This document shows positions 3,050 to 22,320 of a stretch of 64,000 nt of DNA, in pieces. A program made the translations under genes and the position numbers. The first letter of the stretch is position 1; each line of letters begins with the position of its first letter. Below the pieces are notes generated by a model. It was not told where the DNA came from, did no database searches, and saw nothing but the letters and a program-made list of their open reading frames with translations. The stretch comes from an uncultured Eubacteriales bacterium (GTDB lineage Bacteria > Acidobacteriota > Aminicenantia > Aminicenantales > Aminicenantaceae), in assembly GCA_964645765.1 (NCBI GenBank), contig CAZYBE010000006.1, forward strand, positions 18,175-82,174, in the 5' to 3' direction.

Positions 3050-5155
3050 GTGCACATTTGGGGCCTTCACATCCTGGATATCGCCATCGTCTTTCTCTAT
3101 ATCTTAATCATCTTGTGGATGGGAAAACTCGCTGCGCAAAAAACAAGCGATTCGAGCGATTTTTATCTGGCCGGACGCAAATTGGGCAAATTCTACCAGT
3201 TCTTTCTCAACTTTGGCTGCTCAACCAACGCCGACCAGGCTGTGGCCGTTTCGCGTGAAATCTACCGCCAGGGAATCGGCGGCATGTGGATTCAATACCT
3301 TGTCCTCTTCTTGACTCCTTTCTACTGGTTCAGCACCTATTTCTTCCGCCGTGTGCGGCTGACAACCATTGGGGACTTCTTCACAGAGCGTTTTAGAAGC
3401 AAGTCTCTTGGGGCAAGTTTTGCTGTTTTTATCCTGCTGGTGTCTCTCCTTGGGGTGGGAATCAGCTATATGGTCGCAGCTAAGACAATGGTGGCCATGA
3501 CTCCTAAGCCTATCGAGAAATGCACACCTGAGGAACGCTTGAGCATCGAGCAATTCGAAGAGTACCAGGGACTCAAGTCAAGATTGGATCAAGGCTTGAG
3601 CCAGCAGGAAAAGACACGATACGAAGAGCTGAATGAAAAAAACAAGAAGGGCGAGCTTCATTCCTTCGTTTCCTACACCAACCCTCTCCTTTTCTACCTT
3701 ATCTTCTCGGTCATCGTCAGCATCTATACGATGATGGGAGGCTTTCGCGCTGCCGCCCTTACTGACACTGTCCAGGGGTTTCTGATCGTCATCTTTTCTG
3801 TTCTCCTCATCCCTTTGGGACTGAGCAAAATCGGCGGCTTTTCCGGACTCCATGCCTCTGTGGCTGACTATATGTTTGAATTATTCGGCTCGGTGACAAT
3901 CGGAGAATATGCCTGGTATACAATCGTGGCCATGGTTCTCTCCAACCTGGCCTCGATCATCGCAGTTGCTCCAGGCATGCAGACAGCCGGCTCGGCCAAG
4001 GACGAAATGACAGCCCGCTTTGGCATGATAACCGGGATGTTCTTCAAAAGATTCCTGATGATTTTCTGGGCTCTGGCAGGGCTGCTGGCCATAGGGCTCT
4101 ATGCCGGAAGGCTCCACGACCCGGATTTAATCTGGGGATTCATGACAAAAGACCTGCTCTTTCCTGGAGGGATTGGCTTGATGCTCGTCGGAATATTCGC
4201 AGCCAACATGTCCACACAGAGTGCAAGCGCTGTTTCCTATTCTGCGCTCTTTATAAAAAACCTTTATCAACCGCTCAAACCGAACAAGCCTGAAATGCAT
4301 TATTTGCTCATCGGCCGAATTGCGATAGCCGCCATGCTGTTGGCTGGAATAGGAATTGCGCTCTTCATCAACAATCTCCTGGTATTATTCCAGTACGCGA
4401 TCTCCATCCCGGCAATCTTCGGCGCCTCTATTTGGCTGGGGTTTGTCTGGCGGAGGCTGACAAAACCTGCTGTCTTCATCCAGGTTATCATCTGTTTAAT
4501 CATCTACGCTGTCATTCCCAATCTCTTTCAAACTCTCAGCTGGACAAAATATCATCAAGCCTTCTTACTGGAGACCAGAGCCAGAACAGTGACCATCACC
4601 ACCAAGGCCCTTACCGAGGACGTAAAGGAAGGAAGGGCAGAGCGCGTCGGCCAGCCTATTAAAAAACAGCACATTGTCGAGCCTGCGGGTGTCTTCTTCG
4701 AAAAGGTTGCGCGAACGAACCCCTCTGACCCTGCTTCGCCCAAGATAGGATTGGGAAGATTCCATGCTGAGATCTGGGTGTTGAGCTGGTTTAGAATCGA
4801 TTTCTCAAAATTCTCAAAGTCTCAGCTTGTTGCGACCCGCTTTCTATTCGATGCGGCTTTCCCCTTTCTTCTCCTCTTCATCTTATCTTTCGTGACTAAA
4901 TCCGTTCCCAAACCCTACCTGGATAGATTCTTTGCCAGGATGCACACCCCTGTTCAGAAAACAGAAGAAGAAGAGAGAAAGGCTCTTGAAGAATCTTATA
5001 GAAATCCGGGAAGGTTCGAAAAAGACAAGCTCTTCCCAGGCTCGAACTGGGAGATTCTCAAGCCGACAAGAATGGATTTCCTGGGATTTGGAGGAAGCTG
5101 GCTGCTGGTAGGTGTAATAATTTTATTGCTCTGGCTGATGGTTTCTATAAAATAA
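3050..5155 (+). CDS. Sodium:solute symporter (SSS) family transporter with an inserted charged loop and a C-terminal extension
   Basis: 701 aa multi-TM protein with SSS-family N-terminus (SDFYLAGRKLG). Probable GTG start at 3050 preceded by GGAAGGA. A ~120-aa hydrophilic insertion starts around residue 150. Confidence 0.65.
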   Translation: MHIWGLHILDIAIVFLYILIILWMGKLAAQKTSDSSDFYLAGRKLGKFYQFFLNFGCSTNADQAVAVSREIYRQGIGGMWIQYLVLFLTPFYWFSTYFFRRVRLTTIGDFFTERFRSKSLGASFAVFILLVSLLGVGISYMVAAKTMVAMTPKPIEKCTPEERLSIEQFEEYQGLKSRLDQGLSQQEKTRYEELNEKNKKGELHSFVSYTNPLLFYLIFSVIVSIYTMMGGFRAAALTDTVQGFLIVIFSVLLIPLGLSKIGGFSGLHASVADYMFELFGSVTIGEYAWYTIVAMVLSNLASIIAVAPGMQTAGSAKDEMTARFGMITGMFFKRFLMIFWALAGLLAIGLYAGRLHDPDLIWGFMTKDLLFPGGIGLMLVGIFAANMSTQSASAVSYSALFIKNLYQPLKPNKPEMHYLLIGRIAIAAMLLAGIGIALFINNLLVLFQYAISIPAIFGASIWLGFVWRRLTKPAVFIQVIICLIIYAVIPNLFQTLSWTKYHQAFLLETRARTVTITTKALTEDVKEGRAERVGQPIKKQHIVEPAGVFFEKVARTNPSDPASPKIGLGRFHAEIWVLSWFRIDFSKFSKSQLVATRFLFDAAFPFLLLFILSFVTKSVPKPYLDRFFARMHTPVQKTEEEERKALEESYRNPGRFEKDKLFPGSNWEILKPTRMDFLGFGGSWLLVGVIILLLWLMVSIK

Positions 5156-6249: not shown

Positions 6250-7416
6250 TTAGTAAATGCACCTTCGGGCTTCATCGGCATAGGCTCTGATTAACTCGAG
6301 ATCGGCGTCAAAGAAATGGTCTGAGGGAGCTAAAATATATCCGCCTCCCTCCCCTGCTTCCTCAAAGCATCTTCTGACTTCTTTTCTTGTCTCTTCTGGC
6401 TTGCAGCCTTTGAAATAATGAAACTGGTCAAAGCCGCCGATCATGCACACCCTATGCCCGATTCTTTTCTTGGCTTCCTTCAGGTTGGCATCTCCACCCA
6501 TGGCCGATGGGGTAAAAGTTTCCATCGCATCCGGATTCATGTCCGCGATTCTCTCTAAAAAAGGCATCATCCCGCCGCAGGTGTGATAGACGACCCTCTG
6601 CCCGGCTTTGTGAGCGAGTGTAATCAATTCTGAGTCATAGGGAGCGACAAATTCATCGAATATTTTAGGAGAGATGACTGTCGAGGAGGCATCGCCGCCG
6701 CCGTGTTCGATGAGGTCAAATTTGGCGCCTTCTGTTGAGGAAACAAAAACTTTTTTCCTTTCCATCAAAATCTTCAAGAATTTATGCACCCAAATAGGGT
6801 CATAAAAAGTCTCCATGATCAGCTTCTCGATTCCGTATAAAACTGCTGCATCCTGCCAGCAGCCAGGCTGGCCGTAGACATCAAAGCCGGGAATGGAGCC
6901 GCGGACCAATCCCCTTTCGCCGAATTCCTCAACCTGGCGATTGACCTCATCAACATCACAGAGAGGAACCGGAGCGAACTCGGCAAAGGTGTCTATATCT
7001 GATTTTTCTTTAATCATTCGCTCTGTGACCCAGGTCGTGTGCTCATCGCTCTGCAAGACTATGGACAGTGTCTTTCTGGGAGTTTCAAAAAAGTAGCGGA
7101 TTGTCTTGTATCTTGGGTTGGATATATTCTCTGTTCTAGTCCGCCACTTATCAGACCAGATGCGCGGGGCCTGCAAAAACTCCAGTTCTTTTTGTTCCGG
7201 GTCAAAATAATGGCCCTGCGAAGTATCGGGCTTATGGGCAACGACCCAGTTAATCTGGTCTAAGCCGAAATAATCAAAAAACTCCTGGCAGGAAATCCCA
7301 TTCATGTAGGTTTTGAGGAAAGAGGGCATGACATGATGGGTGGTCACAGGAAGACGGTCAGGAATTTCTCTTTTCAGAGCTATCAAAAAGCGTTTTTTTG
7401 AGCTTAACTGTTGCAT
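6250..7416 (-). CDS. Uroporphyrinogen decarboxylase (URO-D) family protein, MtaA/CmuA-like corrinoid methyltransferase (MT2) type
   Basis: 388 aa. C-terminal GGGYILAPSDHFFDADLEL plus N-terminal PDRLPV are typical of URO-D/MtaA family. Confidence 0.65.
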   Translation of the reverse strand: MQQLSSKKRFLIALKREIPDRLPVTTHHVMPSFLKTYMNGISCQEFFDYFGLDQINWVVAHKPDTSQGHYFDPEQKELEFLQAPRIWSDKWRTRTENISNPRYKTIRYFFETPRKTLSIVLQSDEHTTWVTERMIKEKSDIDTFAEFAPVPLCDVDEVNRQVEEFGERGLVRGSIPGFDVYGQPGCWQDAAVLYGIEKLIMETFYDPIWVHKFLKILMERKKVFVSSTEGAKFDLIEHGGGDASSTVISPKIFDEFVAPYDSELITLAHKAGQRVVYHTCGGMMPFLERIADMNPDAMETFTPSAMGGDANLKEAKKRIGHRVCMIGGFDQFHYFKGCKPEETRKEVRRCFEEAGEGGGYILAPSDHFFDADLELIRAYADEARRCIY

Positions 7417-7490
7417 TCTCTTAAAGGAATTTGCTGCTTTTGACTCGCTGGGGCAAAAGCAGCAGTTTTCGAAGCATTCAACCTTAGCCT

Positions 7491-8480
7491 TTACTCAGAT
7501 ATATATTTTAAGGCGTGCTTTCTGACGGTTAACCCATTCTCAGACCTGGAATAAAGATTATTCTTGCTGTCGATGTGAATGGTGTGGGAGCTTTCAGGCA
7601 AGGTGAACGTTAAGAGGTGCTGGCCGTCGCTTCTTAAGACGTAAACGTCGCGGTTTCTATTCTCGGATAAATCACCGCCGAGGACAAAAAGGTTCCCGTA
7701 TGTATCCAAAGCGATTGCCTTGTAGACAGTTTCCTGAGGATATTCACTCAATGTGGCCTTTGTTCCTTTAATTTTTTTTGTCCTGACTTCTCTGTTTCCC
7801 AATAAGCTTTTAACCCAGAGCAGATTTCCATTTCTATCTAATTTTTCAATCTTATCTTTCCAACAATAGGCGATGAGAAGGTTATTGCTCCTATCAATTT
7901 TAAAATTAATCATATTCATCATAGTGAAATTTTTTGAGGTTTCATAGACAATCTTTCCCTTCTCATTTCCCGCGGAATCATAGAGGTAGATGCAAAAATT
8001 GAAATCCCCGTCCTCAGAGCGATCTCGCACCAGAGTCGAGACAGCAATTTGATTACCTGAAGTGATATTTAGATCGGTCACTGTGAAGCGGATAGGAATC
8101 TTAGAGTTGAATTTTAAATCTTCGTCAAAAATGCTTATTCCAGGCCTGTAACTTTCTGTGACATAGAGCCTATCATTGAAGTATTTTATTAAGCTCGGCT
8201 CATTGAAATCTTCTGGCCCTTTTCCGTTTCTTCTTGTCCTTTTCATGAGCTCGCCAATTTTATTGAACTTTTTTATTGAATCTCCTTTAAGGTCAGTTAA
8301 ATAAATATTATCTTCACTGTCAGTGGTCACTCCAACGTTCTGGTACATCACCCCGCCTTCGATTTCATCGATAACAAGAATTTCATCCAAGACAATTCTC
8401 ATCAGCTGCTCTTGAGCGGGCAAAAAAGCCAATAAAGAGAAAGAAAAAATCGCTGCTGATATTAGCTTTAAAGATTTCAT
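7491..8480 (-). CDS. Secreted 6-bladed beta-propeller family protein (paralog of 20890..22023)
   Basis: Signal peptide MKSLKLISAAIFSFSLLAF. Repeated DxxGNIYVxD-like blades (DSEDNIYLTD, DTYGNLFVLG). Confidence 0.55.
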   Translation of the reverse strand: MKSLKLISAAIFSFSLLAFLPAQEQLMRIVLDEILVIDEIEGGVMYQNVGVTTDSEDNIYLTDLKGDSIKKFNKIGELMKRTRRNGKGPEDFNEPSLIKYFNDRLYVTESYRPGISIFDEDLKFNSKIPIRFTVTDLNITSGNQIAVSTLVRDRSEDGDFNFCIYLYDSAGNEKGKIVYETSKNFTMMNMINFKIDRSNNLLIAYCWKDKIEKLDRNGNLLWVKSLLGNREVRTKKIKGTKATLSEYPQETVYKAIALDTYGNLFVLGGDLSENRNRDVYVLRSDGQHLLTFTLPESSHTIHIDSKNNLYSRSENGLTVRKHALKYISE

Positions 8481-8506: not shown

Positions 8507-9151
8507 TCATGCCGCTATTTGGCCCAGCGTCCAGAGAAGGAGCGAGAGAGACAGAGCGACGCTGCAGGCCCACCGGGGATGACGCTGAATAAAACTCTCG
8601 CTGTTCATGCCAATCATTTGGCCGAGGCGAAAGAATAAAAAAGATAGAATGGCTGCCAAGCTTCCATTGATAAAGACGTGGTCAAGGACCTTTAGCAGCC
8701 CCGCTTCGATCCAGTATGGATAGCGGATGATATAGGTCACGAAGAGGGCGAAGAGAGTATGTCCTCCATAAACACCAGCCATCAAGGCCCCAAGCGTTCG
8801 CGAAGAGAACCGGCGCTCATCCTTCCGCAGAAGTGAAAAAGCAAGGTCAAAAGCGATGGCAAGGAAAATAATGCCGTAGATATGGCAGAAAAACGGGGCT
8901 GCGCTCACCAGCTTATAAGCGGCGCCGATGATGCCAACTGCGGTCGAAGAGCCAGGTCTGTTGAGCACTCCTCTTGCTACGACCAGGATAAAGATTGCCC
9001 AAACTGAAAGATAGACAGAGGCACGGGGAACATTTGCATTATAGAGAGCTCCTCCAATAAAGACTTCGCTCATCCCCCAAAGAGAACCAAAGGCCACCAG
9101 CCACGTCAATTGTCTCGTGCTGGTTATTTTTATTCTTCTAAGAGCAATCAT
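8507..9151 (-). CDS. Hypothetical integral membrane protein (5-6 TM; possibly an ECF-type S-component-like transporter subunit)
   Basis: 214 aa, strongly hydrophobic. Lies 26 bp upstream of the propeller gene in the same orientation, so probably co-transcribed. Confidence 0.35.
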   Translation of the reverse strand: MIALRRIKITSTRQLTWLVAFGSLWGMSEVFIGGALYNANVPRASVYLSVWAIFILVVARGVLNRPGSSTAVGIIGAAYKLVSAAPFFCHIYGIIFLAIAFDLAFSLLRKDERRFSSRTLGALMAGVYGGHTLFALFVTYIIRYPYWIEAGLLKVLDHVFINGSLAAILSFLFFRLGQMIGMNSESFIQRHPRWACSVALSLSLLLWTLGQIAA

Positions 9152-9269: not shown

Positions 9270-11108
9270 ATGAGTCATCCCGCCTATTACGGCTATTATG
9301 GAAGGATTCTAGAGGTAGACCTTTCTAGAAATCAGATTCAAATTAAACCTCTTGAGCCGATAACGATTGAAAACTATCTGGGCGGAAGAGGGATTGCAAC
9401 CAGAATCTTTTATGATGAAATCGACCCCAAGTGCGAGCCCCTCGGCGAAGACAACGTCATCGTCATCGCTACTTCTCCTCTTGTCGGAACGCGGGCACCG
9501 ACCGCCTGCCGTGGGCATCTGGTCTTCAAGTCTCCGCTCACCGGATTGATCGGAAGCTCAAACTGCGGTGGCTCCTGGGCAAATTTCTTCAAGTCCGCAG
9601 GCTTCGATGTGCTGGTGATCAAAGGAAAATCTGTGCAGCCAGTATTTATTGATATTTCTCCAGATGAAGTTAAAATTAAACAGGCCGATCATCTCTGGGG
9701 GCTTGATGTCCTTCAAACAACAGAAAAATTGAGCGCAGAGAGCAAGCCAGGCAGCCGGCCGCGAATCCTCTGCATCGGTCCTGCCGGCGAGAAGCTTGTT
9801 CTGATTTCATCAGTCATGAACGAGAATAGAGCATTTGGCCGCTCAGGCATTGGCGCGGTCTTCGGCAGCAAAAACCTCAAAGCAATCAGAGTTTCCGGAA
9901 AAGAAAAAATCGCAATCCAAGACCCTGAGAGGTTTCAATCCGGCATGGAACAGGCGCTCTATCTGATGAAGGCAGCTCCTATTACCAAACGCCTATTTCG
10001 GGAACTCGGCACCTCTGGCTTGCTCAAGCTGATCGATGTCATGGATATGCTTCCCCACCGAAACTTTCAGGATAATATTCATAAGCCTGAAGACCTGGAC
10101 AAGATATCTGGCGAGACCCTGCGTAAAAAAATCCTTGAGCGGGCAGCAGGATGTTTTGGATGTCCAATTGCCTGCGCACGCTTAACCCGGGTCGCTGATA
10201 AAAAAGGTGAGGGACCGGAATACGAGACTATCGTCATGACCGGGCTTGATTGCAGCATTTACGACCTTGAAGCTGTCGCCTTGGCCAACTACCGCTTGAA
10301 CGAGCTTGGAATCGACACCATCAGCTTTGGCGGCACTCTTGCCTGCGCCATGGAGCTCTTTGAAAGAGGATATATAAGCAAGAAAGATACAGATGGGGTT
10401 GAGCTCTGCTTTGGAAATTCCGCTGCCCTCACAGAAATGGCTGAAGCCACTGCTTTCCGGAAAGGCATCGGGGACAAGCTTGCCCTAGGCTCCTACCGGC
10501 TTGCGAGTTTTTTCAAGCATCCCGAGTATTCGATGACAGTCAAGAAGCTTGAGATTCCTGCCTATGACCCGCGCGCCTCGTTCACTCAGGCTTTAGGCTA
10601 TATGACATCGCCAACCGGAGCCTGCCACCTGCGAGGTGGCTATGCGGTCTCGCTTGCCTTTTTCGGCGGGACAAAAGAAATTCCCCGCTTCAGCCTGCTT
10701 CAATCCCCAATCGCCATCAAGAACATGCAGAACCTGGGCATCATCCAGGACAGCCTCGGCATCTGCCGCTTCACCGGGTTTGCCTTCTCCACAGACCCTT
10801 GGTCAAGGATGGTGAGCGCGACAACCGGGATGGATTTTTCAACAACAAGGCTGGAGGAGATAGCCGACAGAGTTGCCACGCTGGAAAGGGTCTTCAACCT
10901 TGAGGCGGGTTTGAACTCTGACGATGACTCTCTGCCCGAGCGCTTCTCATGCGAGGCAATTACGGTCAAGGGAAAAGAAAGGCTCATTCCAAGAGAGGCA
11001 ATGGAAAGGATGAGGCGCGATTATTACCGGGCGCGGGGCTGGGATCAAGAAGGGAGGCCAAAGCAAGGCCTTCTCAAGGCGCTTGAAGTTGATGGAAGGA
11101 AAAAATGA
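9270..11108 (+). CDS. aor: Aldehyde:ferredoxin oxidoreductase (tungsten/molybdopterin AOR family)
   Basis: N-terminal AOR domain (YGYYGRILEVDLS..., KSPLTGLIGSSNCGGSWANFF..GFDVLVIKGKS) and a C-terminal CxxCxxxC cluster motif (GCFGCPIACAR). Confidence 0.85.
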   Translation: MSHPAYYGYYGRILEVDLSRNQIQIKPLEPITIENYLGGRGIATRIFYDEIDPKCEPLGEDNVIVIATSPLVGTRAPTACRGHLVFKSPLTGLIGSSNCGGSWANFFKSAGFDVLVIKGKSVQPVFIDISPDEVKIKQADHLWGLDVLQTTEKLSAESKPGSRPRILCIGPAGEKLVLISSVMNENRAFGRSGIGAVFGSKNLKAIRVSGKEKIAIQDPERFQSGMEQALYLMKAAPITKRLFRELGTSGLLKLIDVMDMLPHRNFQDNIHKPEDLDKISGETLRKKILERAAGCFGCPIACARLTRVADKKGEGPEYETIVMTGLDCSIYDLEAVALANYRLNELGIDTISFGGTLACAMELFERGYISKKDTDGVELCFGNSAALTEMAEATAFRKGIGDKLALGSYRLASFFKHPEYSMTVKKLEIPAYDPRASFTQALGYMTSPTGACHLRGGYAVSLAFFGGTKEIPRFSLLQSPIAIKNMQNLGIIQDSLGICRFTGFAFSTDPWSRMVSATTGMDFSTTRLEEIADRVATLERVFNLEAGLNSDDDSLPERFSCEAITVKGKERLIPREAMERMRRDYYRARGWDQEGRPKQGLLKALEVDGRKK

Positions 11109-12427
11109 GCGGAGAAAAATGGAAGGCGAGTGAAGAGTTGATTCGCATGTTTCAAGCTGTGGGTCGCGCTTCGCTCCTGTTAGACCTCCAGGACAGCCAC
11201 AGCGGAAACATGGCCATCCTCTGGAAGGATGAAAAAGGCGAGGATAAAATCGTCATCACTTCAACAGGTTCCCAGAAAGGCGACCTTGAGCCGGACCAGA
11301 TTTGTTTTCTCTCCGCTTCTGAGACGGATTATGGCTATTACAAGGCATCATCCGAGACAGATATTCATGCCCGGATTCTGGCCATCAAAGGCGTAAGGGC
11401 TTCCATGCATGTCCATAGCAAAGACCTGACCATAGCAACTCTTGACGATGAACAAAAGCCCAATCAGCCGCAGCCTTTTGTGCCCATCGACCCCCTAGGA
11501 TTTTATCATCTTGGAGGGCTTGTTCCTGTGGACTGGTTCGAGGTTCCGAGCGGCTCTCCTGAAATGACGAAAACTATTCCCGAAAGGCTTGCCAAACACC
11601 CGGCAACTGCGATTCAAGGGCATGGCGTGTTCACTAAAGGCCGGAGCCTCAAGGAAGCGTTCTTTTTAGCCGGCATCGCCAACAATTCTGGCTACATCGT
11701 CCGTCTGGTACAAAAGCTTGGTATCGACCTCAGTGGATTGAGGAATAAGATTCAGCCTAGCCCTGATTCTTTTTTTTCTTTCCATCCAGCCGAATACACG
11801 ATTGATGACGATGAAGTCTGTGATTTTCCCCATGAAGAGGAGATTGTTAAAGAATTTTTCAAGACAGGGGCCAGAATCTTTGAATCCCGTCTCTCTCCTT
11901 TTCATACAGGAAGCGTGTCGGTCCGCGGCGTGAAGACCATTCTTTATGCGCCAAAAGCAGCGATGCCACGGGAAATTGGCGGGCCGCTTCATGAGCTCTC
12001 TCTTTCTCCAGAAAATTCTGAATCGCCAGAACTGGCGATTCATAAGAAGATTTATGCTGAGAGCAACTTCCAGACTATTATCCACTGTTATCTCCCTGAG
12101 GCTGAAGCCATCTCTCTTTTCATTAATCCTGCCGAAAGCAAGCCATCCGCTCGGATTGTGCCCATAGATGCCGAGGGAAGCTTTCTTTATTTAGTGGTTC
12201 CGATTCTGCTGCCAAAATTTGATTTTAAAGAATTCCTTAAGCTGCTCCATGATTACAAGGTGGTGATTGTCAGGGGAGGCGGAGTCTGGGGGGTTGGAAC
12301 CCAATCGCTTTCCGAGGTTCTCCATCATCCCTCATCACTTCGAGAAATCTGCCTTTACAGAATCGGCGCTTTGGAGAGAGGGCTCGACCTTAAAAAGATG
12401 GAACCAAAGAAAGCGAAAAGGTGGTAA
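11105..12427 (+). CDS. Tandem class II aldolase/adducin-domain protein. The N-terminal domain keeps all metal ligands; the C-terminal copy is degenerate.
   Basis: Start overlaps the aor stop (ATGA). Domain 1 carries SGNMAI...ITSTGS, E(TDIH), MHVHS and QGHG, matching FucA/RhaD-type motifs. Domain 2 has GSVSVRG but IIHCY in place of HxH. Confidence 0.6.
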   Translation: MSGEKWKASEELIRMFQAVGRASLLLDLQDSHSGNMAILWKDEKGEDKIVITSTGSQKGDLEPDQICFLSASETDYGYYKASSETDIHARILAIKGVRASMHVHSKDLTIATLDDEQKPNQPQPFVPIDPLGFYHLGGLVPVDWFEVPSGSPEMTKTIPERLAKHPATAIQGHGVFTKGRSLKEAFFLAGIANNSGYIVRLVQKLGIDLSGLRNKIQPSPDSFFSFHPAEYTIDDDEVCDFPHEEEIVKEFFKTGARIFESRLSPFHTGSVSVRGVKTILYAPKAAMPREIGGPLHELSLSPENSESPELAIHKKIYAESNFQTIIHCYLPEAEAISLFINPAESKPSARIVPIDAEGSFLYLVVPILLPKFDFKEFLKLLHDYKVVIVRGGGVWGVGTQSLSEVLHHPSSLREICLYRIGALERGLDLKKMEPKKAKRW

Positions 12428-12446
12428 ATAAAAAGGAGGAAATTAA

Positions 12447-12923
12447 ATGGCGAAGGTGCTTGTTTGCTATTATTCACGGACTGGGAATACGGAGGAGATG
12501 GCGGAAAAAATAGCCGAAGTCATGAAAGGAGAAGGGTTGGATGTTGACCTGGCAAAGGTGGAAGACACGAAAGTTGACGAGCTCCTCAACTATGACTGTC
12601 TGATTTTCGGCTCGCCGACATATTACGGCTCCATGGCCTGGCCAATGAAAAAGCTTCTGGATGAAAGCGTGAAATTCCATGGAAGGCTGAAGGGAAAAAT
12701 CGGCGGTGCTTTCTCTTCTTCAGCCAATGTCGGCGGCGGTAATGAGACAACAATCCTGAGTATCCTGAAGGCTCTTATCATCCACGGAATGATTGTCCAG
12801 GGAGAGCCGAGCGGGGATCACTACGGCCCGGTCTCTATAGGAACGCCAGATAAAAGGGCTCTAAAAAATTGCGAACGCTATGCCAAAAATCTATCAGCTT
12901 TGGTAAAAAAATTATTTTTATGA
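12447..12923 (+). CDS. Flavodoxin family protein (WrbA/flavodoxin-like FMN protein)
   Basis: 158 aa. VLVCYYSRTGNTEEMAE FMN-binding loop and LIFGSPTYYG motif. RBS AAGGAGG. Confidence 0.65.
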   Translation: MAKVLVCYYSRTGNTEEMAEKIAEVMKGEGLDVDLAKVEDTKVDELLNYDCLIFGSPTYYGSMAWPMKKLLDESVKFHGRLKGKIGGAFSSSANVGGGNETTILSILKALIIHGMIVQGEPSGDHYGPVSIGTPDKRALKNCERYAKNLSALVKKLFL

Positions 12924-13052
12924 AAAAGTTAAAAAAAAGAGTAAGGGTTATTTTAGAATTTCTTTTTTGGCCTCAGGCCATTTTTCTTACTTCTCTAATC
13001 AATTGGCATACGCTGACACATTGTTAGAGCAGAGAAAAAAGCGAACTTTTTA

Positions 13053-13715
13053 TTAGGTAGCGTTCAGATAATCCAGGGCGCCCTGAGGGTCAGGATAATA
13101 AGCGTCTGCCCCGATTCTGTCCGCGAAATCCTGGGTTACAGGCGCGCCTCCGATGATGACCTTTACCTCTGGAGTTTTTGCTTTAATTTCCCTGGTGATG
13201 CTTTCCATGCTGACCATGGTCGTGGTCAGAAGAGCGCTGAGTCCGACGGCAAGAGGCTTATGCGCCTCGACGGCCTGGATGAATTTATCTGCCGAAACAT
13301 CAACACCAAGGTCGATAACCTCCCAGCCGCCTCCTTCGAAAAACATGGCCACGATTTTTTTCCCGATGTCGTGCAAATCTCCGGTGACTGTTCCCATCAC
13401 AATCTTGCCTTTGTGCTTGACTTCGCCCGATTGAAAATAAGGCTTCAGATGCTTCATGGCTGAGGTGAGCGACCTGGCAGACATCAAGACATCCGGAAGG
13501 TAGACTTCGCCGTCACGGAATCTCTCCCCGACCGTCTGCATTCCGGCAATCAGCCCTTTGGCCAGAATCTCAGAAGCAGGGATTCTTGACTCCAGGGCTT
13601 TCTTTGTCAGCTCATCAGCGCCATCCTGACCCTTCATATCAGGAGGATGGGGAGAGTTGGCATCGACCTTCCCCCTTTCCACACACAGAGCAATTCTTTC
13701 AATAATTTCTTTCAT
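13053..13715 (-). CDS. Corrinoid (cobalamin-binding) protein of methyltransferase systems (MtaC/MtbC-like)
   Basis: N-terminal helical cap domain plus B12-binding Rossmann domain with the DxHxxG signature (GDLHDIGKK) and GGAPVT. Confidence 0.75.
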   Translation of the reverse strand: MKEIIERIALCVERGKVDANSPHPPDMKGQDGADELTKKALESRIPASEILAKGLIAGMQTVGERFRDGEVYLPDVLMSARSLTSAMKHLKPYFQSGEVKHKGKIVMGTVTGDLHDIGKKIVAMFFEGGGWEVIDLGVDVSADKFIQAVEAHKPLAVGLSALLTTTMVSMESITREIKAKTPEVKVIIGGAPVTQDFADRIGADAYYPDPQGALDYLNAT

Positions 13716-13881: not shown

Positions 13882-14094
13882 ATGCGTATGGAGTTTAAAA
13901 AAATCGTTAACCAGATAAAAAAACTTCAGCTCGAAGAAAAAGAAGAAATTAAAACTCTCATAGAAAAATATATTATTGAGGAAAGACGGGGAGAAATCCA
14001 GGACAACTATAAAAAAAGCAAAAAAGAAGCGAAAAAAGGCAAATTGGGTTTTTCGAGTGATATCGCCGAACTGAAGAAGTTTATTGATAGATAA
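13882..14094 (+). CDS. Small Lys/Glu-rich hypothetical protein (70 aa, predicted helical/coiled-coil)
   Basis: ORF has a good RBS and a promoter-like sequence upstream. Its 3' end overlaps the convergent rhamnosidase stop by 14 bp. No family recognised. Confidence 0.35.
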   Translation: MRMEFKKIVNQIKKLQLEEKEEIKTLIEKYIIEERRGEIQDNYKKSKKEAKKGKLGFSSDIAELKKFIDR

Positions 14095-16792
14095 ATTTAG
14101 CACTATTAAATTTATAATATCCGCTCCCTGTTTTGAAAACGAGGTATTTTCCTTTTCGGCCAAAGAACGAAACGTCTGATTTGCCTTTTTTTTTCAGAAT
14201 TCCCTTTTCCCAAAGAATCTTCCTGTTTTCTCTGACGACACAGTCTTCGCTCAAAACAGGAATATATATTTCCCCCTCGCTTCCCACAGGGATGAGAGCA
14301 ATCAATTCAAATGAATTTTTCTTTTTCTGCCACGATAGGCGAGCCTCTCCCCTAACTGTCTTCACTGTTGCTGTGGCATAATCGAGCCCATCGAGGACCG
14401 GAGGTCTTATGCGAACTCTCTTCCATCCTGGAGCAAGGCTCGATATTCCTGCAATCACCCTATAGAACCAGGCATCGAGGCTTCCGAGCATGATATGGTT
14501 GTGGGAATTCATGCCGCCGCCTGTTATCTTCTCCCATCTTTCCCAGAGCGTTGTCGCTCCCTCTTCAACCATGTACCCCCAGCCTGGATAGCTTCGCTGA
14601 TTGACAATCCTGTAGGCGACATCGCCATAGCCATTATCGGTGAGAACATCAAGAATGTATCTTGTTCCGAGGATTCCTGTGTCAAGATGATAATCCTGTT
14701 CCTGCGTGATGCTGTGGACAAGGCTCTGCAAAACTTTTTCCTTCTTCTCTTTTGGCACCATATCAAGATAAAGAGGAAGAATGTTGGAGGTTTGACTCAG
14801 GCTTCTCTCGACCGGGCTCATTCGCTGGGCTTTATAATGGTCGTCTTCTAGAAAATTTTTATTGAACGCCTCTTTGATCTTTTCAGCAAGCTTCAAGAAT
14901 CGCTGGTCATCATTCTTTTTTCCAAGAATCTTTGAAATTCTAGCCAGCAAGAGCACATCATGATAATAATACCAGCTCGAGGTCAGCTCCACAGGAGTCC
15001 TCTTGGGGACAACGCTACCTGGAGGGCACCAGTCACCATACTTTCCAAGTTTCTTCAATATGTTTCCTTCGGCATTTGCTCTAAGAAACTCGATATATTT
15101 TTTCAATGAAGAGTAATGTTCCTCGAGAATCCTTCTGTCTCCGTAAAAATTAAATACAAGCCAGGCGAGTGTGATGTAGGCGCTTCCCCACGCTGGGTCA
15201 GCAGGATACAACCGGCCAAGGTAAAGAGGAACTGTGTCGGGCAAACTTCCGTCCTCTTTCTGGGCAAGCTGGATGTCCTTCAGAAATTTTGTGTAGAAGG
15301 CAGCCATATCGAAATTGAAAGCAGCTTCTTCTGCTGAAAGATGGGCGTCGCCGAGCCAGCCCTGTCTTTCATCCCTTTGAGAACAGTCAGTCGGAATGCT
15401 CATCAGGTTTGAAAGCTGTCCCCAGACGATATTGTGGTGAATCTTGTTGAGAAGCTCGTTGGAGCAGAAGAAATCGCCGGCATTCTCCACATCCGTATTC
15501 ACGACACAGCCTTGGACATTCTCCAATGTGGGAACTCCTGGAAATCCTGAGACTTCAATATAACGGAAACCGTGATAAGTGAACCTTGGCTCATAAACCT
15601 CCAGGCCATCGCCTTTCAGGATATAGACATCGGTTGCCTCGGCATTCTGGTTTGGAGCTGTGTTCAGCGTCCCGTCTTCATGGACAAGCTCGGCATGCCT
15701 TAAGCGCACCTCTATTCCTCTAGGCCCGCTAACAGAGAGCCTTGTCCATCCGGCAAAATTTTGTCCAAAGTCGTAGATGTAAATGCCCGGGCTCGGGCTG
15801 TAAAGTCTCTTCGCCTTAAGCCTCTTTGTTACCCGAACGGGCTGAATCATTTGAGAATATAGCACTGGGCCCCTGACGACGGCTGCTCTATGCCATTTAG
15901 AATCATCAAAACCAGGCTTATCCCAGCCTGGCTGCTCGAGCCTGGCATCATACCTTTCTCCAAAGTAGAGGCCATCCTTGTTCAGCGCTCCATAGGAAAG
16001 CTTCCATCTCTCATCAGAAACGATTGTCTCTTTATTGCCGTTCTTGTAGTCGATCATGATTTGAAGGATTAGTCTTGGATGACCATAGCCGTAGTTTTTT
16101 ATATGCCTGCCATTTCCCAAGAGCACACCAATTGCATTTTTTCTCTTTATTTGACTGGTTATATCGTATGTCGAATAAAGAGCGATTTTTTTGTAATCTG
16201 TCTGCGCCGGGTCAAGGACGCGGTCTCCTATTTTGTTGCCATTGAGGTGCAGCTCATAAAAACCAAGGCCGCAGACATAGGCTCTTGCTTTTTGCACTTT
16301 TTCCTTCGCCCCGAACTCTTTTCTCAAATAAAGAGTCTGGCTGTGAACGTATTTCCCCATGTATTTTCCTTGAAAAACTGTTCCTCTTGAGCTGAACTCC
16401 TTACAGCCTTTCTTGCTGACCCACTCGGCCTTCCAGTCGCTCTTATTGAGAAGCCCCATCTCGAAAAATGCTGTCTCGCTGAAAGGACTTGCACTCCTAT
16501 CCTTATCCCACCATCTGACTCGCCAGAAGTATTGTCTGAAGCTTTTGAGCGGCTTTCCCGAATAAGCCGCATTGAATGTCTGCTCGGATTCGACCTTGCC
16601 GCTGTCCCATTGGTCTCTGATTCCGTTCAGGGCAAGCTCGAAGTCCGAAGAGACGATGATTTGATAGAATTTTTGACGCTGTCCCCTGCTCTTGTGTTCT
16701 ACAATCCAGGAGAATCGAGGCCTGAGCCTATCAATACCTAAAGGATTTCTCAGATACTCACATCTTAAATCCCTCGGCGCTGCTATTTTCAT
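14081..16792 (-). CDS. Alpha-L-rhamnosidase (GH78)
   Basis: Canonical GH78 N-terminus LRCEYLRNPLGID...PRFSW, then (alpha/alpha)6 catalytic region. 903 aa. Confidence 0.85.
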   Translation of the reverse strand: MKIAAPRDLRCEYLRNPLGIDRLRPRFSWIVEHKSRGQRQKFYQIIVSSDFELALNGIRDQWDSGKVESEQTFNAAYSGKPLKSFRQYFWRVRWWDKDRSASPFSETAFFEMGLLNKSDWKAEWVSKKGCKEFSSRGTVFQGKYMGKYVHSQTLYLRKEFGAKEKVQKARAYVCGLGFYELHLNGNKIGDRVLDPAQTDYKKIALYSTYDITSQIKRKNAIGVLLGNGRHIKNYGYGHPRLILQIMIDYKNGNKETIVSDERWKLSYGALNKDGLYFGERYDARLEQPGWDKPGFDDSKWHRAAVVRGPVLYSQMIQPVRVTKRLKAKRLYSPSPGIYIYDFGQNFAGWTRLSVSGPRGIEVRLRHAELVHEDGTLNTAPNQNAEATDVYILKGDGLEVYEPRFTYHGFRYIEVSGFPGVPTLENVQGCVVNTDVENAGDFFCSNELLNKIHHNIVWGQLSNLMSIPTDCSQRDERQGWLGDAHLSAEEAAFNFDMAAFYTKFLKDIQLAQKEDGSLPDTVPLYLGRLYPADPAWGSAYITLAWLVFNFYGDRRILEEHYSSLKKYIEFLRANAEGNILKKLGKYGDWCPPGSVVPKRTPVELTSSWYYYHDVLLLARISKILGKKNDDQRFLKLAEKIKEAFNKNFLEDDHYKAQRMSPVERSLSQTSNILPLYLDMVPKEKKEKVLQSLVHSITQEQDYHLDTGILGTRYILDVLTDNGYGDVAYRIVNQRSYPGWGYMVEEGATTLWERWEKITGGGMNSHNHIMLGSLDAWFYRVIAGISSLAPGWKRVRIRPPVLDGLDYATATVKTVRGEARLSWQKKKNSFELIALIPVGSEGEIYIPVLSEDCVVRENRKILWEKGILKKKGKSDVSFFGRKGKYLVFKTGSGYYKFNSAKFIYQ

Positions 16793-16914
16793 TTTACGAT
16801 TAAATTTATTCTCTACTTTTGATTCGCTGGCGCAAAAGCGCCGTTTCTTTGAAACACCAGGCCTGACTCATAATGTGGTTTTGCATCACGGAAAAAAATG
16901 CTAATTCTCTCAAT

Positions 16915-18186
16915 TCACCTGCGCTTGGAAGTCACCTCGGCTTCGTAGCGTTTGATTTCCTCAATCCAGACATCGCCTGGAGGAACATCATTCTTTAAAC
17001 AGTAGAAATCCCAGACTGTACCAAAAGGCATGGTCTTTGCTTCCTCCATGAGCGCCAGGCGGGAAAAGAAATCGCCTCTGTCCTCAGATTCTTTGAGCCT
17101 CGGCCGAGGCTCAAGTAGAGCCAGCAGAAGCCCCTTTAAAACAGCTCGCGCTCCGATAACCCAGGCTCCAATACGATTGAGGCTGGCATCAAAAAAGTCA
17201 AGGGCAATATGGACACGTCCCAGCACACCGCCTCTGACAATCTCTTCGCAGACTGTCTTCAGCTCATCATTGAGGATGACAACATGGTCGCTGTCCCATC
17301 TGACACCTCGGCTGAAGTGAAGAAGCAGATCTGAAGAAAACTGTAGAATTGCTGAGATCTTATCTGCGACAGATTCTGTCGGATGAAAGTGCCCAAGGTC
17401 AAGGCAAAGCATGATGTTTTTTGAAATAACATAGCCCATGTAAAACTCGTGGGAGCCGACAACATAGGACTCGCTTCCGATGCCGAAGAGCTTGCTCTCC
17501 ACAGAATCCTTCATTTCTTTGGGGCTGTATTCCATCTCAAAAATCTTATCCAATGACTCTCTGAGAAGAGCCCGGTGCGTCCAGCGGTCGAACGGCGCAT
17601 CTTTTGAGCCGTCAGGTATCCAGAGGTTATGGATGCAGGGACTTTGCAGCTTCTGTCCCATAAAAGCACTTATGGCGCGGCAGCGGCGGACATGCTCAAT
17701 CCAGAATTCGCGAATTTTTTTGTCCCTGCTACTCAGAGTAAAACCCGAATCTGCTTTGGGATGGGAGAAACAGGTGGCGTTAAAGTCAAGCTTGAGGTTT
17801 TCAGACTTCGCCCATTCGACCCAGCCTTTAAAATGCTCAGGGCCAATCTGGTCTCTATCGACAGGCTTAGCTCCGAATTCACCGTAAATCGCATGGAGGT
17901 TCAGGCGGTGACGGCCTGGAATCAAGGAGTAGGCTTTGTTTAAATCCAGGCGCAGCTCGTCGATGGTCCTTGCTCTTCCCGGATAGTTGCCTGTGACCTG
18001 AAGTCCTCCGCCTTCAAGCCGGGCCCCTGGCTTTTCAAAACCCCTGACATCATCTCCCTGCCAGCAGTGGATTGAGAGAGAAATGCTTTCCAATGTTTTT
18101 ATGGCTTTATCCGCGTCTACTCCCAGCTTGGAGTAGAGCTCATTTGCCATTTTATATGCATCTTCAATTTCTTTTATGTTGTTCAA
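16915..18186 (-). CDS. rhaA: L-rhamnose isomerase
   Basis: 423 aa with HCWQGDDV and other RhaA-specific segments. Confidence 0.9.
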   Translation of the reverse strand: MNNIKEIEDAYKMANELYSKLGVDADKAIKTLESISLSIHCWQGDDVRGFEKPGARLEGGGLQVTGNYPGRARTIDELRLDLNKAYSLIPGRHRLNLHAIYGEFGAKPVDRDQIGPEHFKGWVEWAKSENLKLDFNATCFSHPKADSGFTLSSRDKKIREFWIEHVRRCRAISAFMGQKLQSPCIHNLWIPDGSKDAPFDRWTHRALLRESLDKIFEMEYSPKEMKDSVESKLFGIGSESYVVGSHEFYMGYVISKNIMLCLDLGHFHPTESVADKISAILQFSSDLLLHFSRGVRWDSDHVVILNDELKTVCEEIVRGGVLGRVHIALDFFDASLNRIGAWVIGARAVLKGLLLALLEPRPRLKESEDRGDFFSRLALMEEAKTMPFGTVWDFYCLKNDVPPGDVWIEEIKRYEAEVTSKRR

Positions 18187-18204: not shown

Positions 18205-19710
18205 TTAAATGAGATTTTGAAATTCTTTGAAACGCTCATAAGCTGAATCCCATTCTTTGCTCTGCTGGGGCTCGTATCGCTCAAGCTCAAAAGACTGGCT
18301 GATGACTTTGCGCACCTCAGAGTGCGAAGAAAAATATCCCAGAGCGAGCGCCTGGACCATTATATTCCCGATGGCCGTGGCCTCAACCGGCCCGGCGATG
18401 ACCGGAAGGCCAGTGGCATTGGCAGTGAACTGGTTGAGAAGTCGGTTCTTCGCTCCTCCACCGATAACATGGATGCGACGAATGGGATGGGGATATACTT
18501 TTCTCAGCTGGTCGAGCGTATGACGATATTTCAAGGCAAGGCTTTCCAGGATGCAGCGGACAAACTCCGCTGAAGAATCAGGCGCCTTCTGTTTAGTTTT
18601 TTGGCAGAATTGACGGATAGCTTCAGGCATATCCGGCGGATTCAAAAATCCTCGCCAGTCAGGCTCGACGAGCGACCTGAAAGGCGATGCAGAGGCCGCC
18701 ATCTCTGTCAGCTCATCATAGCTTAAGAGCCTTTCCTTGGCCCATGCCCGACGGCACTCCTGGAGAAGCCAGAAGCCTGTGATGTTTTTCAAGAAGCGGA
18801 AAGTTCCGCCTACCCCGCCCTCGTTGGTGAAATTCAGCTCGAGCGCCTGCTCATTGATGACCGGCTCTTTTGTCTCCACTCCCATCAGAGACCATGTGCC
18901 GGAGCTGATGTAAGCCCAGTCTTCTCCCTCAGCAGGAACTGCGCCTACTGCAGAGCCCGTGTCATGGGAAGCGACAGCGATGACCGGAATATCTCCTATT
19001 CCGGTTTCCTGTGAGGTAGATTTATCCAAGCGGCCGATGACTGTTCCAGGCAAGACAATCTTCTGCATGATGGACTTTGAAACGCCAAGGCAAGCAAAAA
19101 GCTCGTCGTCCCAATTTTTTTTTCGGGGATTGTAGAGCTGGGAAGTTGTGGCATAGGTGAATTCGGTTTTCTTCTCTTTCGTGAAAAGATAATTGAATGT
19201 ATCCGGCATGAAGAGGAGGTCGCTGGCCGTTTCGAGAAGAGGTGAATCATCCCTCTTCATCGAAAAGAGCTGAAAAAGAGAGTTGAACTGCAAGAATTGT
19301 ATTCCAGTCAACTCGTAGACGCGATGGCGAGGAATTTTCTTGAAAAATTCTTCCATCGCTCCTTCGGTGCGCGAGTCGCGGTAGGCATAAGGCAGGCCGA
19401 GCAATGAGCCATCGCGCGTAAGAAGAGCGAAGTCCACTCCCCAGGTGTCAAAGGCGACGCTCTGCGGCCTGGCGCCTGCCTCCGAGGCACAGACTTTTAT
19501 TCCCTTCTTCACTTCCTCGAAAATACGGTAGATGTTCCAATGCCAGTGCCCGAGGATGAAGACCATGCCGTTGGCGAAACGATTCAGCTCTTTAATTTTT
19601 AATCGCCGTTTATCAAGCCAGCCGAGCATGGCTCTGCCGCTATCAGCGCCTATATCAAAGGCAAGAAAAGAAGGAGCATCAATGGTTTTTCTTTTTTTAT
19701 TATTCGCCAA
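18205..19710 (-). CDS. rhaB: Rhamnulokinase (FGGY carbohydrate kinase)
   Basis: FGGY kinase N-terminus (LAFDIGADSGRAMLG), immediately upstream of rhaA in the same orientation. Confidence 0.8.
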   Translation of the reverse strand: MANNKKRKTIDAPSFLAFDIGADSGRAMLGWLDKRRLKIKELNRFANGMVFILGHWHWNIYRIFEEVKKGIKVCASEAGARPQSVAFDTWGVDFALLTRDGSLLGLPYAYRDSRTEGAMEEFFKKIPRHRVYELTGIQFLQFNSLFQLFSMKRDDSPLLETASDLLFMPDTFNYLFTKEKKTEFTYATTSQLYNPRKKNWDDELFACLGVSKSIMQKIVLPGTVIGRLDKSTSQETGIGDIPVIAVASHDTGSAVGAVPAEGEDWAYISSGTWSLMGVETKEPVINEQALELNFTNEGGVGGTFRFLKNITGFWLLQECRRAWAKERLLSYDELTEMAASASPFRSLVEPDWRGFLNPPDMPEAIRQFCQKTKQKAPDSSAEFVRCILESLALKYRHTLDQLRKVYPHPIRRIHVIGGGAKNRLLNQFTANATGLPVIAGPVEATAIGNIMVQALALGYFSSHSEVRKVISQSFELERYEPQQSKEWDSAYERFKEFQNLI

Positions 19711-19814
19711 TATTCCGCCCTCTTCTCAATGCAGAATTCCAATTATCACACTGAAAGAGCTCTGTCAATTTCAATCTATTGTGTGCTATAAAAGAACAAA
19801 GTGCATTAGCTGAT

Positions 19815-20876: not shown

Positions 20877-20889
20877 AACAGGAGAAGAA

Positions 20890-22092: not shown

Positions 22093-22320
22093 ATGAAAAT
22101 TTCTAAATCAGAAGCCAAAGCATTCAAGAACCGATGGGAAAGAGTGAACGCTGCCCAGCGCCATGAGCTGAGACAGACTTCTCTCTTAAAAAAGATTCTC
22201 CATCTTGCCGCTCTCATGGCATCGGTGAAAGCCATGCGGTGGGATAAAGCCCTCTCTAAAGAAGTGACTTCGGTGAGGAATCGCTGGAAACGTCTCAGGA
22301 AGGCTTATCATGCCGAATAA
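22093..22320 (+). CDS. Small hypothetical protein (75 aa), putative partner (antitoxin-like) of the downstream nucleotidyltransferase; homolog of 40451..40666
   Basis: Overlaps the downstream gene by 11 bp. Shares an ERxxxA...LLxxxLH segment and a basic C-terminal R[KR]x[YS]H motif with the ORF at 40451..40666. Confidence 0.3.
   Translation: MKISKSEAKAFKNRWERVNAAQRHELRQTSLLKKILHLAALMASVKAMRWDKALSKEVTSVRNRWKRLRKAYHAE

Follow-up and report, generated by a model that had tools for sequence, protein, structure and literature searches.

We found, in a 64,000-nucleotide stretch of DNA (the window), an operon in which an aldehyde:ferredoxin oxidoreductase (AOR) is joined to a tandem class II aldolase, and we consider it somewhat better than an even chance that the two make up a two-enzyme "lactaldehyde branch" module of 6-deoxyhexose catabolism in an anaerobe. 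The three open reading frames of the operon lie where the sequence-only reading of this DNA had placed them, all on the forward strand: AOR (9270-11108, 612 aa; Pfam AFOR_N 246 bits, AFOR_C 403 bits), the aldolase (11105-12427, 440 aa, with two Aldolase_II stretches in Pfam) and, as the last gene, a short flavodoxin-family protein of 158 aa (12447-12923; Pfam Flavodoxin_1 51.7 bits against a cut-off of 25, short-chain flavodoxin equivalog 57 bits against 123, and a partial match to WrbA, 79 against 132). The translational coupling of AOR and aldolase proposed in that reading was borne out, with the stop codon TGA of the former and the start codon ATG of the latter sharing the ATGA at 11105-11108. 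The flavodoxin gene follows 19 nt past the aldolase, with the ribosome site AAGGAGG, and a consensus scan marks a terminator-like hairpin, a pattern match only, at the end of the operon (12968-12980, forward strand; TGGCCTCAGGCCA then TTTTTCTT). The source of the DNA is an uncultured sediment bacterium of the Aminicenantes.

We compared 104 related loci, with neighbours identified by tblastn mapping and de novo ORF clustering; pairing was counted in the 69 Aminicenantes-type loci with enough upstream sequence, and downstream partners in the 62 loci with downstream sequence. AOR stands immediately 5′ of the aldolase in 68 of these 69 loci, which span 62-94% identity, so the pairing is far beyond chance and the two genes form a conserved unit. 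The junction is a 4-nt overlap in 25 of the 78 junctions scored, and nearly all others have a gap of at most 30 nt. Such tight coupling argues for a shared task of the two proteins, and the simplest reason for coupling an enzyme to an aldehyde oxidiser is that it forms an aldehyde. Both points weigh against the reading, unlikely in our view, that no pathway links the two: AOR would then be a general aldehyde scavenger, the tandem protein would have some other class II superfamily activity, perhaps not that of an aldolase (epimerase, dehydratase, decarboxylase), and the gene neighbourhoods would reflect inherited synteny. The tandem protein falls under all equivalog thresholds and the linkage to rhamnose genes appears to be a single event, as this reading would have it, but the two independent neighbourhood types described below, rhaAB and L-lactate dehydrogenase, converge on lactaldehyde/lactate.

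The AOR-aldolase pair is near-universal in Aminicenantes metagenomes (307 confirmed matches), and in most genomes it occupies a housekeeping-looking site (secretin-NTPase-...-TilS) with no sugar genes near. This distribution, together with the retention of the pair where rhaB is absent, would suit a salvage "DHAP shunt", in which 5-deoxyribulose-1-P or methylthioribulose-1-P (radical-SAM/polyamine by-products) is split into DHAP and acetaldehyde or methylthioacetaldehyde, AOR detoxifies the aldehyde, and the adjacency of rha genes is incidental; MtnB is also the second-best NCBIfam match of the aldolase, and the MtnB-like aq_1979 its second-best PDB profile match. We nevertheless judge the shunt to be quite improbable: mtnA, mtnK, mtnP or drdI/K-like neighbours were found in none of the 104 loci by tblastn mapping and de novo ORF clustering, and the shunt would leave unexplained why 27 loci have L-lactate dehydrogenase genes after the aldolase. 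Relatives of the aldolase at 26-39% identity have neither AOR nor rha genes nearby; their genes overlap an Nramp gene or stand after a histidine kinase.

The aldolase is a true tandem duplication, since aligning the profiles of its two halves with hhalign gave a probability of 98.6% and an E-value of 1.2e-15 over 189 columns, and the order of secondary-structure elements is identical in both halves of its AF2 model (pLDDT 91.8). The N-terminal domain (aa 1-215; 11105-11749) is an intact class II metal-dependent domain containing the full FucA-type set of catalytic, metal and phosphate-site residues, of which H102, H104, H173, E84, N35, T52, G55 and S82/S83 are conserved without exception across 19-51 members of the family. 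The C-terminal domain (aa 236-440; 11810-12427) repeats this fold in degenerate form and has lost the metal site, with Y329 standing where the N-domain has H104, G392 in place of H173 and S270 in place of N35. The signature of the class II superfamily PF00596 (His-x-His plus a distal His, Glu acid/base, phosphate pocket) is thus present in the N-domain and lost from the C-domain, whose profile still matches 2fk5 (E 4.5e-12) and in which P353, D355, E357 and G393 are invariant across the family. At the position of FucA Tyr113, a residue contributed by the neighbouring subunit, the aldolase has a Pro, and a PxDxxG motif is found there instead.

The FucA/RhaD-type assignment made in the sequence-only reading holds in part. 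Compared with RhaD, FucA and MtnB profiles, the protein is closest to FucA-type aldolases in sequence and in fold, which provide its best fold and profile matches, but it misses every curated threshold: it scores 19.9 bits on the FucA model PRK08087 (cut-off 264), 23.7 on FucA_Meth (cut-off 250) and 21 on the RhaD equivalog (cut-off 170), and the RhaEW model gives no match at E ≤ 0.001. An assignment to the FucA, RhaD or RhaEW equivalogs is therefore not supported. The MtnB and AraD types are less close than the FucA type in sequence and fold, and the MtnB model TIGR03328 gives 56.1 bits against a cut-off of 137.

Its partner is an AOR sensu stricto, presumably of the tungstopterin/4Fe-4S type, with both AFOR domains far above their cut-offs, and is placed in the broad-substrate AOR clade. 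Among solved structures, 9mqx, 9g7j and Pyrococcus furiosus 1aor come closest (E 1e-132 to 1e-139), the last matching over the full length at E 5.7e-132. The protein contains the cluster motif CxxCxxxC (C295/C298/C302, plus C499), an EYE motif at 317-319 (E319) and H453, which we take to correspond to C288/291/295/494, E313 and H448 of the P. furiosus enzyme. The related tungsten enzyme WOR1 oxidises lactaldehyde well in vitro (PMC11725836).

Downstream of the operon, as the sequence-only reading had reported, lies a rhamnose block (at a measured distance of 1.16 kb, given there as 1.2 kb). It is on the opposite strand and consists of a GH78 alpha-L-rhamnosidase, which frees rhamnose (14081-16792; all five Pfam rhamnosidase domains), the L-rhamnose isomerase RhaA for pathway step 1 (16915-18186; 665 bits on the NCBIfam equivalog, above its cut-off of 572) and the rhamnulokinase RhaB for step 2 (18205-19710; FGGY_N and FGGY_C domains, and 516.8 bits on TIGR02627, 11 bits under the cut-off of 527.95). 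The rha genes and the AOR operon are convergent and not co-transcribed, and a corrinoid-protein gene that the earlier reading had left out (13053-13715, reverse strand) lies between them. Among the 50 ORFs of the window (at least 120 aa) that we scanned against Pfam, there is no second PF00596 aldolase, no aldehyde dehydrogenase and no iron alcohol dehydrogenase, so that the absence of a rhamnulose-1-P aldolase and of a lactaldehyde dehydrogenase or reductase, previously noted for the block, extends to the whole window; the scanned ORFs include no tungstate transporter or tungsten cofactor genes. No further aldolase or lactaldehyde enzyme was found near rhaB-rhaA in one related locus (L102). 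Judged by this gene content, the aldolase and lactaldehyde steps of the rhamnose cluster would be filled only if the AOR-aldolase operon supplies both.

Across the related loci, rhaA is found within 7 kb of the pair in 18 of 62, all in a single clade that includes the window; in seven loci, one of them in a 4.35-Mb genome, AOR, aldolase and flavodoxin are followed by a directly convergent rhaA-rhaB. The co-occurrence with rha genes expected by the sequence-only reading is therefore real for a whole clade, but ten of the 18 loci have rhaA without rhaB (one has a split rhaA), no rha genes occur near the distant relatives, and, as far as the sequences indicate, the linkage is one evolutionary event in one lineage. 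The proposal in that reading that flavodoxin takes the electrons of AOR did not generalise. Flavodoxin is present in 8 of the 18 rha-linked loci, exactly those with rhaB, and is missing from more than 50 AOR-aldolase loci, with none in the Lut-, CbiX- or TilS-type loci; it thus tracks rhaB rather than AOR and is not a general electron acceptor.

The commonest downstream partner of the aldolase is an L-lactate dehydrogenase of the LutC plus LutB-LutA (LdhG/LdhH) type, found in 27 of the 62 loci, which the aldolase tree places in several deep clades. In these loci LutC, a LUD-domain protein forming the small subunit, and a LutB-LutA fusion stand co-directionally and immediately 3′ of the aldolase; on the NCBIfam model for the L-lactate dehydrogenase (quinone) large subunit LdhH, the fusion reaches 732-738 bits, just short of the cut-off of 800. 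The lut genes were found only in loci with AOR and are absent from the window, whose clade has rhaA (and rhaB) at that position. An L-lactate dehydrogenase after the pair is expected if AOR makes lactate. The fusion also matches the GlcF (89-101 bits) and GlpC models weakly, which would fit cleavage of another ketose-1-phosphate (ribulose-1-P, xylulose-1-P, fructose/tagatose-1-P) to glycolaldehyde or glyceraldehyde, with AOR forming glycolate or glycerate for use by the CCG-domain protein. A weak 40-bit match of the aldolase to the NCBIfam model of the haloarchaeal ribulose-1-P aldolase points the same way, and archaeal sugar pathways reportedly use AOR-family oxidation of glyceraldehyde or GAP (in part PMC9246946). 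We hold this scheme to be decidedly unlikely: the LdhH scores far exceed those for GlcF, glycerate kinase and glycolate-pathway genes do not recur in the loci as clustered by de novo ORFs, and the adjacency of rhaA/rhaB points to a 6-deoxy substrate.

In the lactaldehyde scheme that we infer, with substrates, metal, electron acceptor and direction read from gene identities, overlap, conserved residues, fold and neighbourhoods, the rhamnosidase would free L-rhamnose, which RhaA and RhaB would convert to L-rhamnulose-1-phosphate. The N-domain, with a divalent metal presumably held by H102/H104/H173 and E84 as acid/base, would split this into DHAP and L-lactaldehyde, and may also accept L-fuculose-1-phosphate; the role of the degenerate C-domain would be limited to completing the oligomer. 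The co-translated tungsten AOR would oxidise the toxic L-lactaldehyde to L-lactate and reduce a low-potential carrier, probably the operon flavodoxin in the window's sub-clade and, in other lineages, a ferredoxin whose gene lies elsewhere. In relatives with LdhG/LdhH (LutC/LutB-LutA) behind the aldolase, lactate would go on to pyruvate. Class II aldolases are reversible, so the pair could also run in the biosynthetic direction, with AOR reducing lactate to lactaldehyde at the expense of reduced ferredoxin/flavodoxin and the aldolase joining it to DHAP to give a 6-deoxyketose-1-phosphate. We regard this as very improbable, because known 6-deoxyhexose biosynthesis runs via nucleotide sugars and the neighbours (rhamnosidase, isomerase, kinase, lactate-oxidising enzyme) are catabolic, even though acid reduction by AORs, driven by low-potential donors, has been reported (PMC9295118). 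Overall, the lactaldehyde hypothesis of the sequence-only reading agrees with the FucA-type residues and fold, the conserved pair, the rha clade and the L-lactate dehydrogenase neighbours; against it stand the restricted occurrence of flavodoxin, the single rha event and the missed equivalog thresholds.

Little is known of what AOR-type tungsten enzymes act on in the cell, and they are usually labelled general aldehyde scavengers. In the present case, about 70 independent loci tie an AOR genetically to a single putative aldehyde producer, and neighbours that are rhaAB or L-lactate dehydrogenase name its likely aldehyde. Our results point to ferredoxin-linked lactaldehyde oxidation as a previously uncharacterised way of handling rhamnose/fucose; the broader claim that AOR had not been described in deoxyhexose catabolism was too strong, since a 2022 MAG study had already proposed AORs for rhamnose-derived lactaldehyde (PMC9324843). 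If this is correct, the module would join RhaD with AldA/FucO and RhaEW as a third non-orthologous way of carrying out the rhamnulose-1-P aldolase and lactaldehyde steps; deoxy-sugar fermentation in anoxic sediments would yield lactate/pyruvate and low-potential electrons rather than propanediol, and pathway-completeness calls would be corrected for Aminicenantes MAGs otherwise scored as lacking rhaD. A bolder version, to which we give rather little credence, is a phylum-wide tungsten-dependent route in which strict anaerobes would use AOR and the tandem aldolase, joined in most lineages by LdhGH, to take both halves of rhamnose/fucose to pyruvate and gain reduced ferredoxin/flavodoxin with no excretion of 1,2-propanediol, the dead C-domain and the translational coupling reflecting a lactaldehyde-channelling aldolase-AOR complex; this AOR would then be the first from a bacterium to have a defined physiological substrate dedicated to it.

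Among known systems, the single-domain proteins of about 200 aa represented by the Thermus thermophilus HB8 "FucA" (PDB 2fk5) and the NCBIfam PRK08660 "aldolase" group, for which we know of no established substrate, differ from the tandem protein, which scores 126 bits on PRK08660 against a cut-off of 203. Escherichia coli RhaD/FucA share with it the fold, the His3 metal site, the Glu acid/base and the phosphate pocket, along with the predicted products DHAP and L-lactaldehyde; unlike them, it reaches only 20-21 bits on both equivalogs, is tandem rather than single-domain, and has Pro and PxDxxG in place of Tyr113. The proposed anaerobic fate of lactaldehyde would be oxidation by AOR, instead of the reduction to 1,2-propanediol by FucO that accompanies RhaD/FucA with AldA or FucO. 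P. furiosus AOR and Eubacterium limosum WOR1 belong to the same enzyme family as the window AOR, with the cluster and cofactor motifs in common, but are viewed as general scavengers that have no dedicated partner making their aldehyde. WOR1 counts lactaldehyde among the five substrates on which it works best, and a flavodoxin is co-regulated with it (PMC11725836); it is, moreover, a multi-subunit bifurcating complex, whereas the window AOR is a single gene. The 27 lut loci resemble LutABC/LldEFG/Desulfovibrio LdhGH in their LUD-domain small subunit and LutB-LutA fusion, despite the fusion's sub-threshold LdhH score and the lack of these genes in the window. The nearest parallel is RhaEW (YuxG; Chloroflexus aurantiacus Caur_2283, B. 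subtilis), an aldolase fused to a lactaldehyde dehydrogenase, with proven pathway logic: in that system, as proposed for the window, a non-RhaD class II aldolase is physically coupled to an L-lactaldehyde oxidiser in rha loci, and some genomes, with lldEFG in some RhaR regulons, add a LldEFG/LutABC-type lactate dehydrogenase leading to pyruvate (Rodionova et al., 2013; PMC3870299). RhaW, however, is an NAD-dependent short-chain dehydrogenase within one polypeptide, where the window has a separate AOR, presumably tungstopterin-dependent, that would reduce ferredoxin/flavodoxin, and the window aldolase, a tandem with one dead domain, is not recognised by the RhaEW model. The AOR-aldolase route is best read as a putative non-orthologous analogue of RhaEW plus LldEFG.

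The three plus-strand genes that the sequence-only reading had grouped together were reproduced at exactly the same coordinates: the AOR gene (9270-11108; 612 aa, with the AFOR_N and AFOR_C domains of Pfam), the tandem class II aldolase gene (11105-12427; 440 aa, with two Aldolase_II stretches according to Pfam), and a gene recognized by domain match as encoding a flavodoxin-family protein (12447-12923; 158 aa). The AOR stop codon TGA shares bases with the aldolase start ATG in an ATGA at 11105-11108; the flavodoxin gene starts after a 19-nt spacing, with an AAGGAGG site ahead of it, and is followed by a terminator-like hairpin found by pattern (12968-12980). On the minus strand lie genes for a corrinoid protein (MtgC/MtbC-like; 13053-13715), which sits between the flavodoxin and rhamnosidase genes, the GH78 rhamnosidase (14081-16792), rhaA (16915-18186) and rhaB (18205-19710). 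Among the 50 window ORFs compared with Pfam there is no further class II aldolase, aldehyde dehydrogenase or iron alcohol dehydrogenase, which agrees with the earlier claim that the rha block has no rhamnulose-1-phosphate aldolase and no lactaldehyde dehydrogenase or reductase.

The AOR is most similar over its full length to the solved structures 9mqx, 9g7j, and 1aor from Pyrococcus furiosus (E 1e-132 to 1e-139), and contains the CxxCxxxC...C cluster motif along with the conserved histidine and the glutamate of the EYE motif; judged by sequence, it is an AOR sensu stricto. The tandem aldolase is the product of an internal duplication: profile alignment matched its N- and C-terminal halves with 98.6% probability (E 1.2e-15), and in the AlphaFold model (pLDDT 91.8, pTM 0.92) the secondary-structure elements repeat in one order. 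Residues invariant in the family in the N-half (N35, T52, G55, S82/S83, E84, H102, H104, and H173) align with N29, T43, G44, S71/72, E73, H92, H94, and H155 of FucA; Tyr113 of FucA has no counterpart. The C-half has lost two of three histidines and the phosphate-site asparagine, and we therefore regard it as a structural pseudo-domain. Its possible role as an AOR-docking adaptor was weakened, since family members without AOR retain the same C-domain. The tandem aldolase missed every NCBIfam equivalog cut-off to which it was compared (PRK08660, 126 against 203 bits; MtnB, 56 against 137; FucA, 20 against 264; RhaD, 21 against 170). Thus the proposed FucA/RhaD assignment holds insofar as FucA-type folds outscore MtnB, but not at the level of the FucA, RhaD, or MtnB cut-offs; on its alignments the protein belongs to a distinct subfamily among the FucA-like class II aldolases, and its substrate is a prediction.

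This family is small, with ∼40 clusters at E < 1e-30 among 1.84 billion cluster representatives searched exhaustively; the metagenome scan used a close 10-sequence alignment. We collected 104 related loci (L001-L104), mapping neighbors by tblastn and de novo ORF clustering; 92 of them form a close set, with aldolases 62-94% identical to that of the window, and the locus counts contain some near-duplicate contigs (e.g., L065/L066 and L007/L090). L104, reached by way of RhaA, added no information on context. AOR lies immediately 5′ of the aldolase gene in 68 of the 69 close-set loci with at least 1.9 kb of upstream sequence, and the 4-nt overlap seen in the window recurs at 25 of 78 scored junctions, nearly all others having a gap of at most 30 nt. 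It is unlikely that the two proteins have no pathway link, given that the coupling of their genes is near-absolute. More distant aldolase relatives (26-39% identity) have no AOR, and are found either at the same secretin-NTPase...tilS position, overlapping an Nramp gene, or after a histidine kinase gene. For example, in L010-L012, L014, and L015 (aldolase at ∼10001-11260), 38-39%-identity homologues overlap or abut the gene of an Nramp divalent-metal transporter, with no AOR; this adjacency hints that the aldolase metal may be Mn or Fe. The NTPase_1 (THEP1-like) gene, the usual upstream neighbor of the AOR-aldolase pair in other Aminicenantes, is found in the window at 38213-38734 (plus strand), behind a formiminotransferase-cyclodeaminase gene and 27 kb from the pair, which therefore appears to have left its ancestral site in this lineage.

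Downstream neighbors were classified in the 62 close-set loci with at least 2.5 kb of downstream sequence: 27 have a co-directional LUD-domain gene and a LutB-LutA fusion gene, 18 have rhaA, nine have an HD-domain gene and tilS, seven have a CbiX gene, and one has another neighbor. The fusion protein scored 732-738 bits against LdhH (L-lactate dehydrogenase (quinone) large subunit), compared to 341-357 for LutB/LldF and only 89-101 for GlcF. An AOR acting on L-lactaldehyde would make the acid that an L-lactate dehydrogenase consumes, and RhaA and RhaB make the ketose phosphate from which an aldolase would release L-lactaldehyde; two independent types of neighbor thus lead to one intermediate. 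An aldolase yielding glycolaldehyde or glyceraldehyde instead is very doubtful, as both the LdhH-versus-GlcF scores and the adjacency to rhaAB go against it. A salvage aldolase of the DHAP shunt (MtnB-like) would fit the housekeeping position of the pair and the secondary matches of the aldolase to MtnB and aq_1979, but it is quite unlikely, since no shunt genes recur among the neighbors, FucA-type folds score above the MtnB type, and the lactate dehydrogenase genes would be left unexplained.

In a neighbor-joining tree of the aldolases (unrooted and approximate), the Lut-linked loci are scattered over several deep clades, whereas all rha-linked loci, including the window, form one clade; the rha association is a single evolutionary event. 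The co-occurrence with rha genes that the sequence-only reading had proposed as a check holds for that one clade. Its flanks are reshuffled, with the AOR-aldolase pair beside rhaA in every arrangement: upstream lies a DUF4416 gene in some loci and an SSF-UROD-propeller-membrane protein series in others, the rhamnosidase gene is on either strand, and the corrinoid gene is variably present. Ten rha-linked loci have rhaA without rhaB, and rhaA is broken across two frames in L026. In the rhaA-only sub-clade (L021, L026-L030, L033, L037, L038, L054, and L103), rhaB, rhamnosidase, and flavodoxin genes are not found within 10 kb, and an Asparaginase_2 gene often separates aldolase and rhaA; in L030 it is AOR itself that is lacking. 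The rhaB-rhaA locus of another Aminicenantes genome (L102) has no AOR-aldolase pair and no aldolase of any kind within 10 kb. The eight loci with a flavodoxin gene are precisely the ones carrying rhaB. As a partner of AOR in general, flavodoxin can clearly be dismissed; its proposed role as electron acceptor may hold in this sub-clade.

On either side of the AOR and rha genes, in inverted orientation, lies a URO-D-like (MtaA-type) methyltransferase gene paired with an NHL/beta-propeller gene (6250-8480, minus strand; 19779-22023, plus strand). Every Aminicenantes locus of the rha type, L102 and L103 included, has a URO-D gene next to rhaA or rhaB. These neighbors suggest that the use of rhamnose or rhamnosides is tied to a corrinoid methyltransferase system, its substrate perhaps being O-methylated sugars or methoxylated rhamnosides. 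A 701-aa SSF-family symporter (3050-5155, plus strand), syntenic with URO-D and rha genes in L001, L021, L027, L030, L040, L102, and L103, may transport rhamnose or rhamnosides. Divergent from AOR is a gene (8507-9151, minus strand) for a 214-aa multi-pass membrane protein without Pfam or NCBIfam match, whose position is kept in L001-L004, L009, L023, L033, and L037-L040. Between the propeller gene and asnS lies an inserted AbiEii/DUF6036-type nucleotidyltransferase (toxin-like) gene (22310-22897, plus strand), which related loci such as L021 lack at this point. The Rfam scan of the whole window returned no riboswitch (e.g., Moco/Tuco) or other RNA, and we sought an operator common to the AOR promoter region and the rha intergenic regions and found none. 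A 24-nt palindrome, CTTTTGAYTCGCTGGSGCAAAAGC, has two copies (7437-7460 and 16816-16839; none expected), both intergenic in minus-strand operons (propeller|URO-D and rhaA|rhamnosidase); none of the 104 related loci contains the element, which was set aside for that reason.

The simplest model, which we consider somewhat probable, builds on comparative evidence throughout: gene identities, residues, fold, and neighborhood statistics are shown, whereas its substrates, metal, acceptor, and direction are predicted. RhaA and RhaB would yield L-rhamnulose-1-phosphate, and aldol cleavage would give DHAP and L-lactaldehyde, with the N-domain of the tandem aldolase cutting a 6-deoxy-L-ketohexose-1-phosphate (rhamnulose-1-phosphate in this clade, possibly fuculose-1-phosphate). 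The co-translated AOR would at once oxidize the reactive lactaldehyde to lactate, reducing a low-potential carrier, and LdhGH, in loci having its genes, would convert lactate to pyruvate. A reductive, biosynthetic direction is extremely improbable, since the neighbors are catabolic.

The use of AOR for lactaldehyde, put forward as new, has precedents: a MAG study mentioned briefly that lactaldehyde derived from rhamnose could be detoxified by AORs (PMC9324843), and tungsten-dependent lactaldehyde oxidation was measured for WOR1 of Eubacterium limosum, though as a way of detoxifying aldehydes when the cells grow on lactate (PMC11725836). We found no description of the AOR-aldolase operon, the tandem aldolase, or the LdhGH link in the open-access literature searched. 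RhaEW, validated in vitro and in vivo, joins a non-RhaD class II aldolase and an NAD-dependent lactaldehyde dehydrogenase in one fusion protein, and some regulons contain lldEFG (PMC3870299). The AOR-aldolase pair follows the same logic with different proteins for both catalytic parts: its AOR is a tungstopterin enzyme, and its aldolase a pseudo-dimeric tandem.
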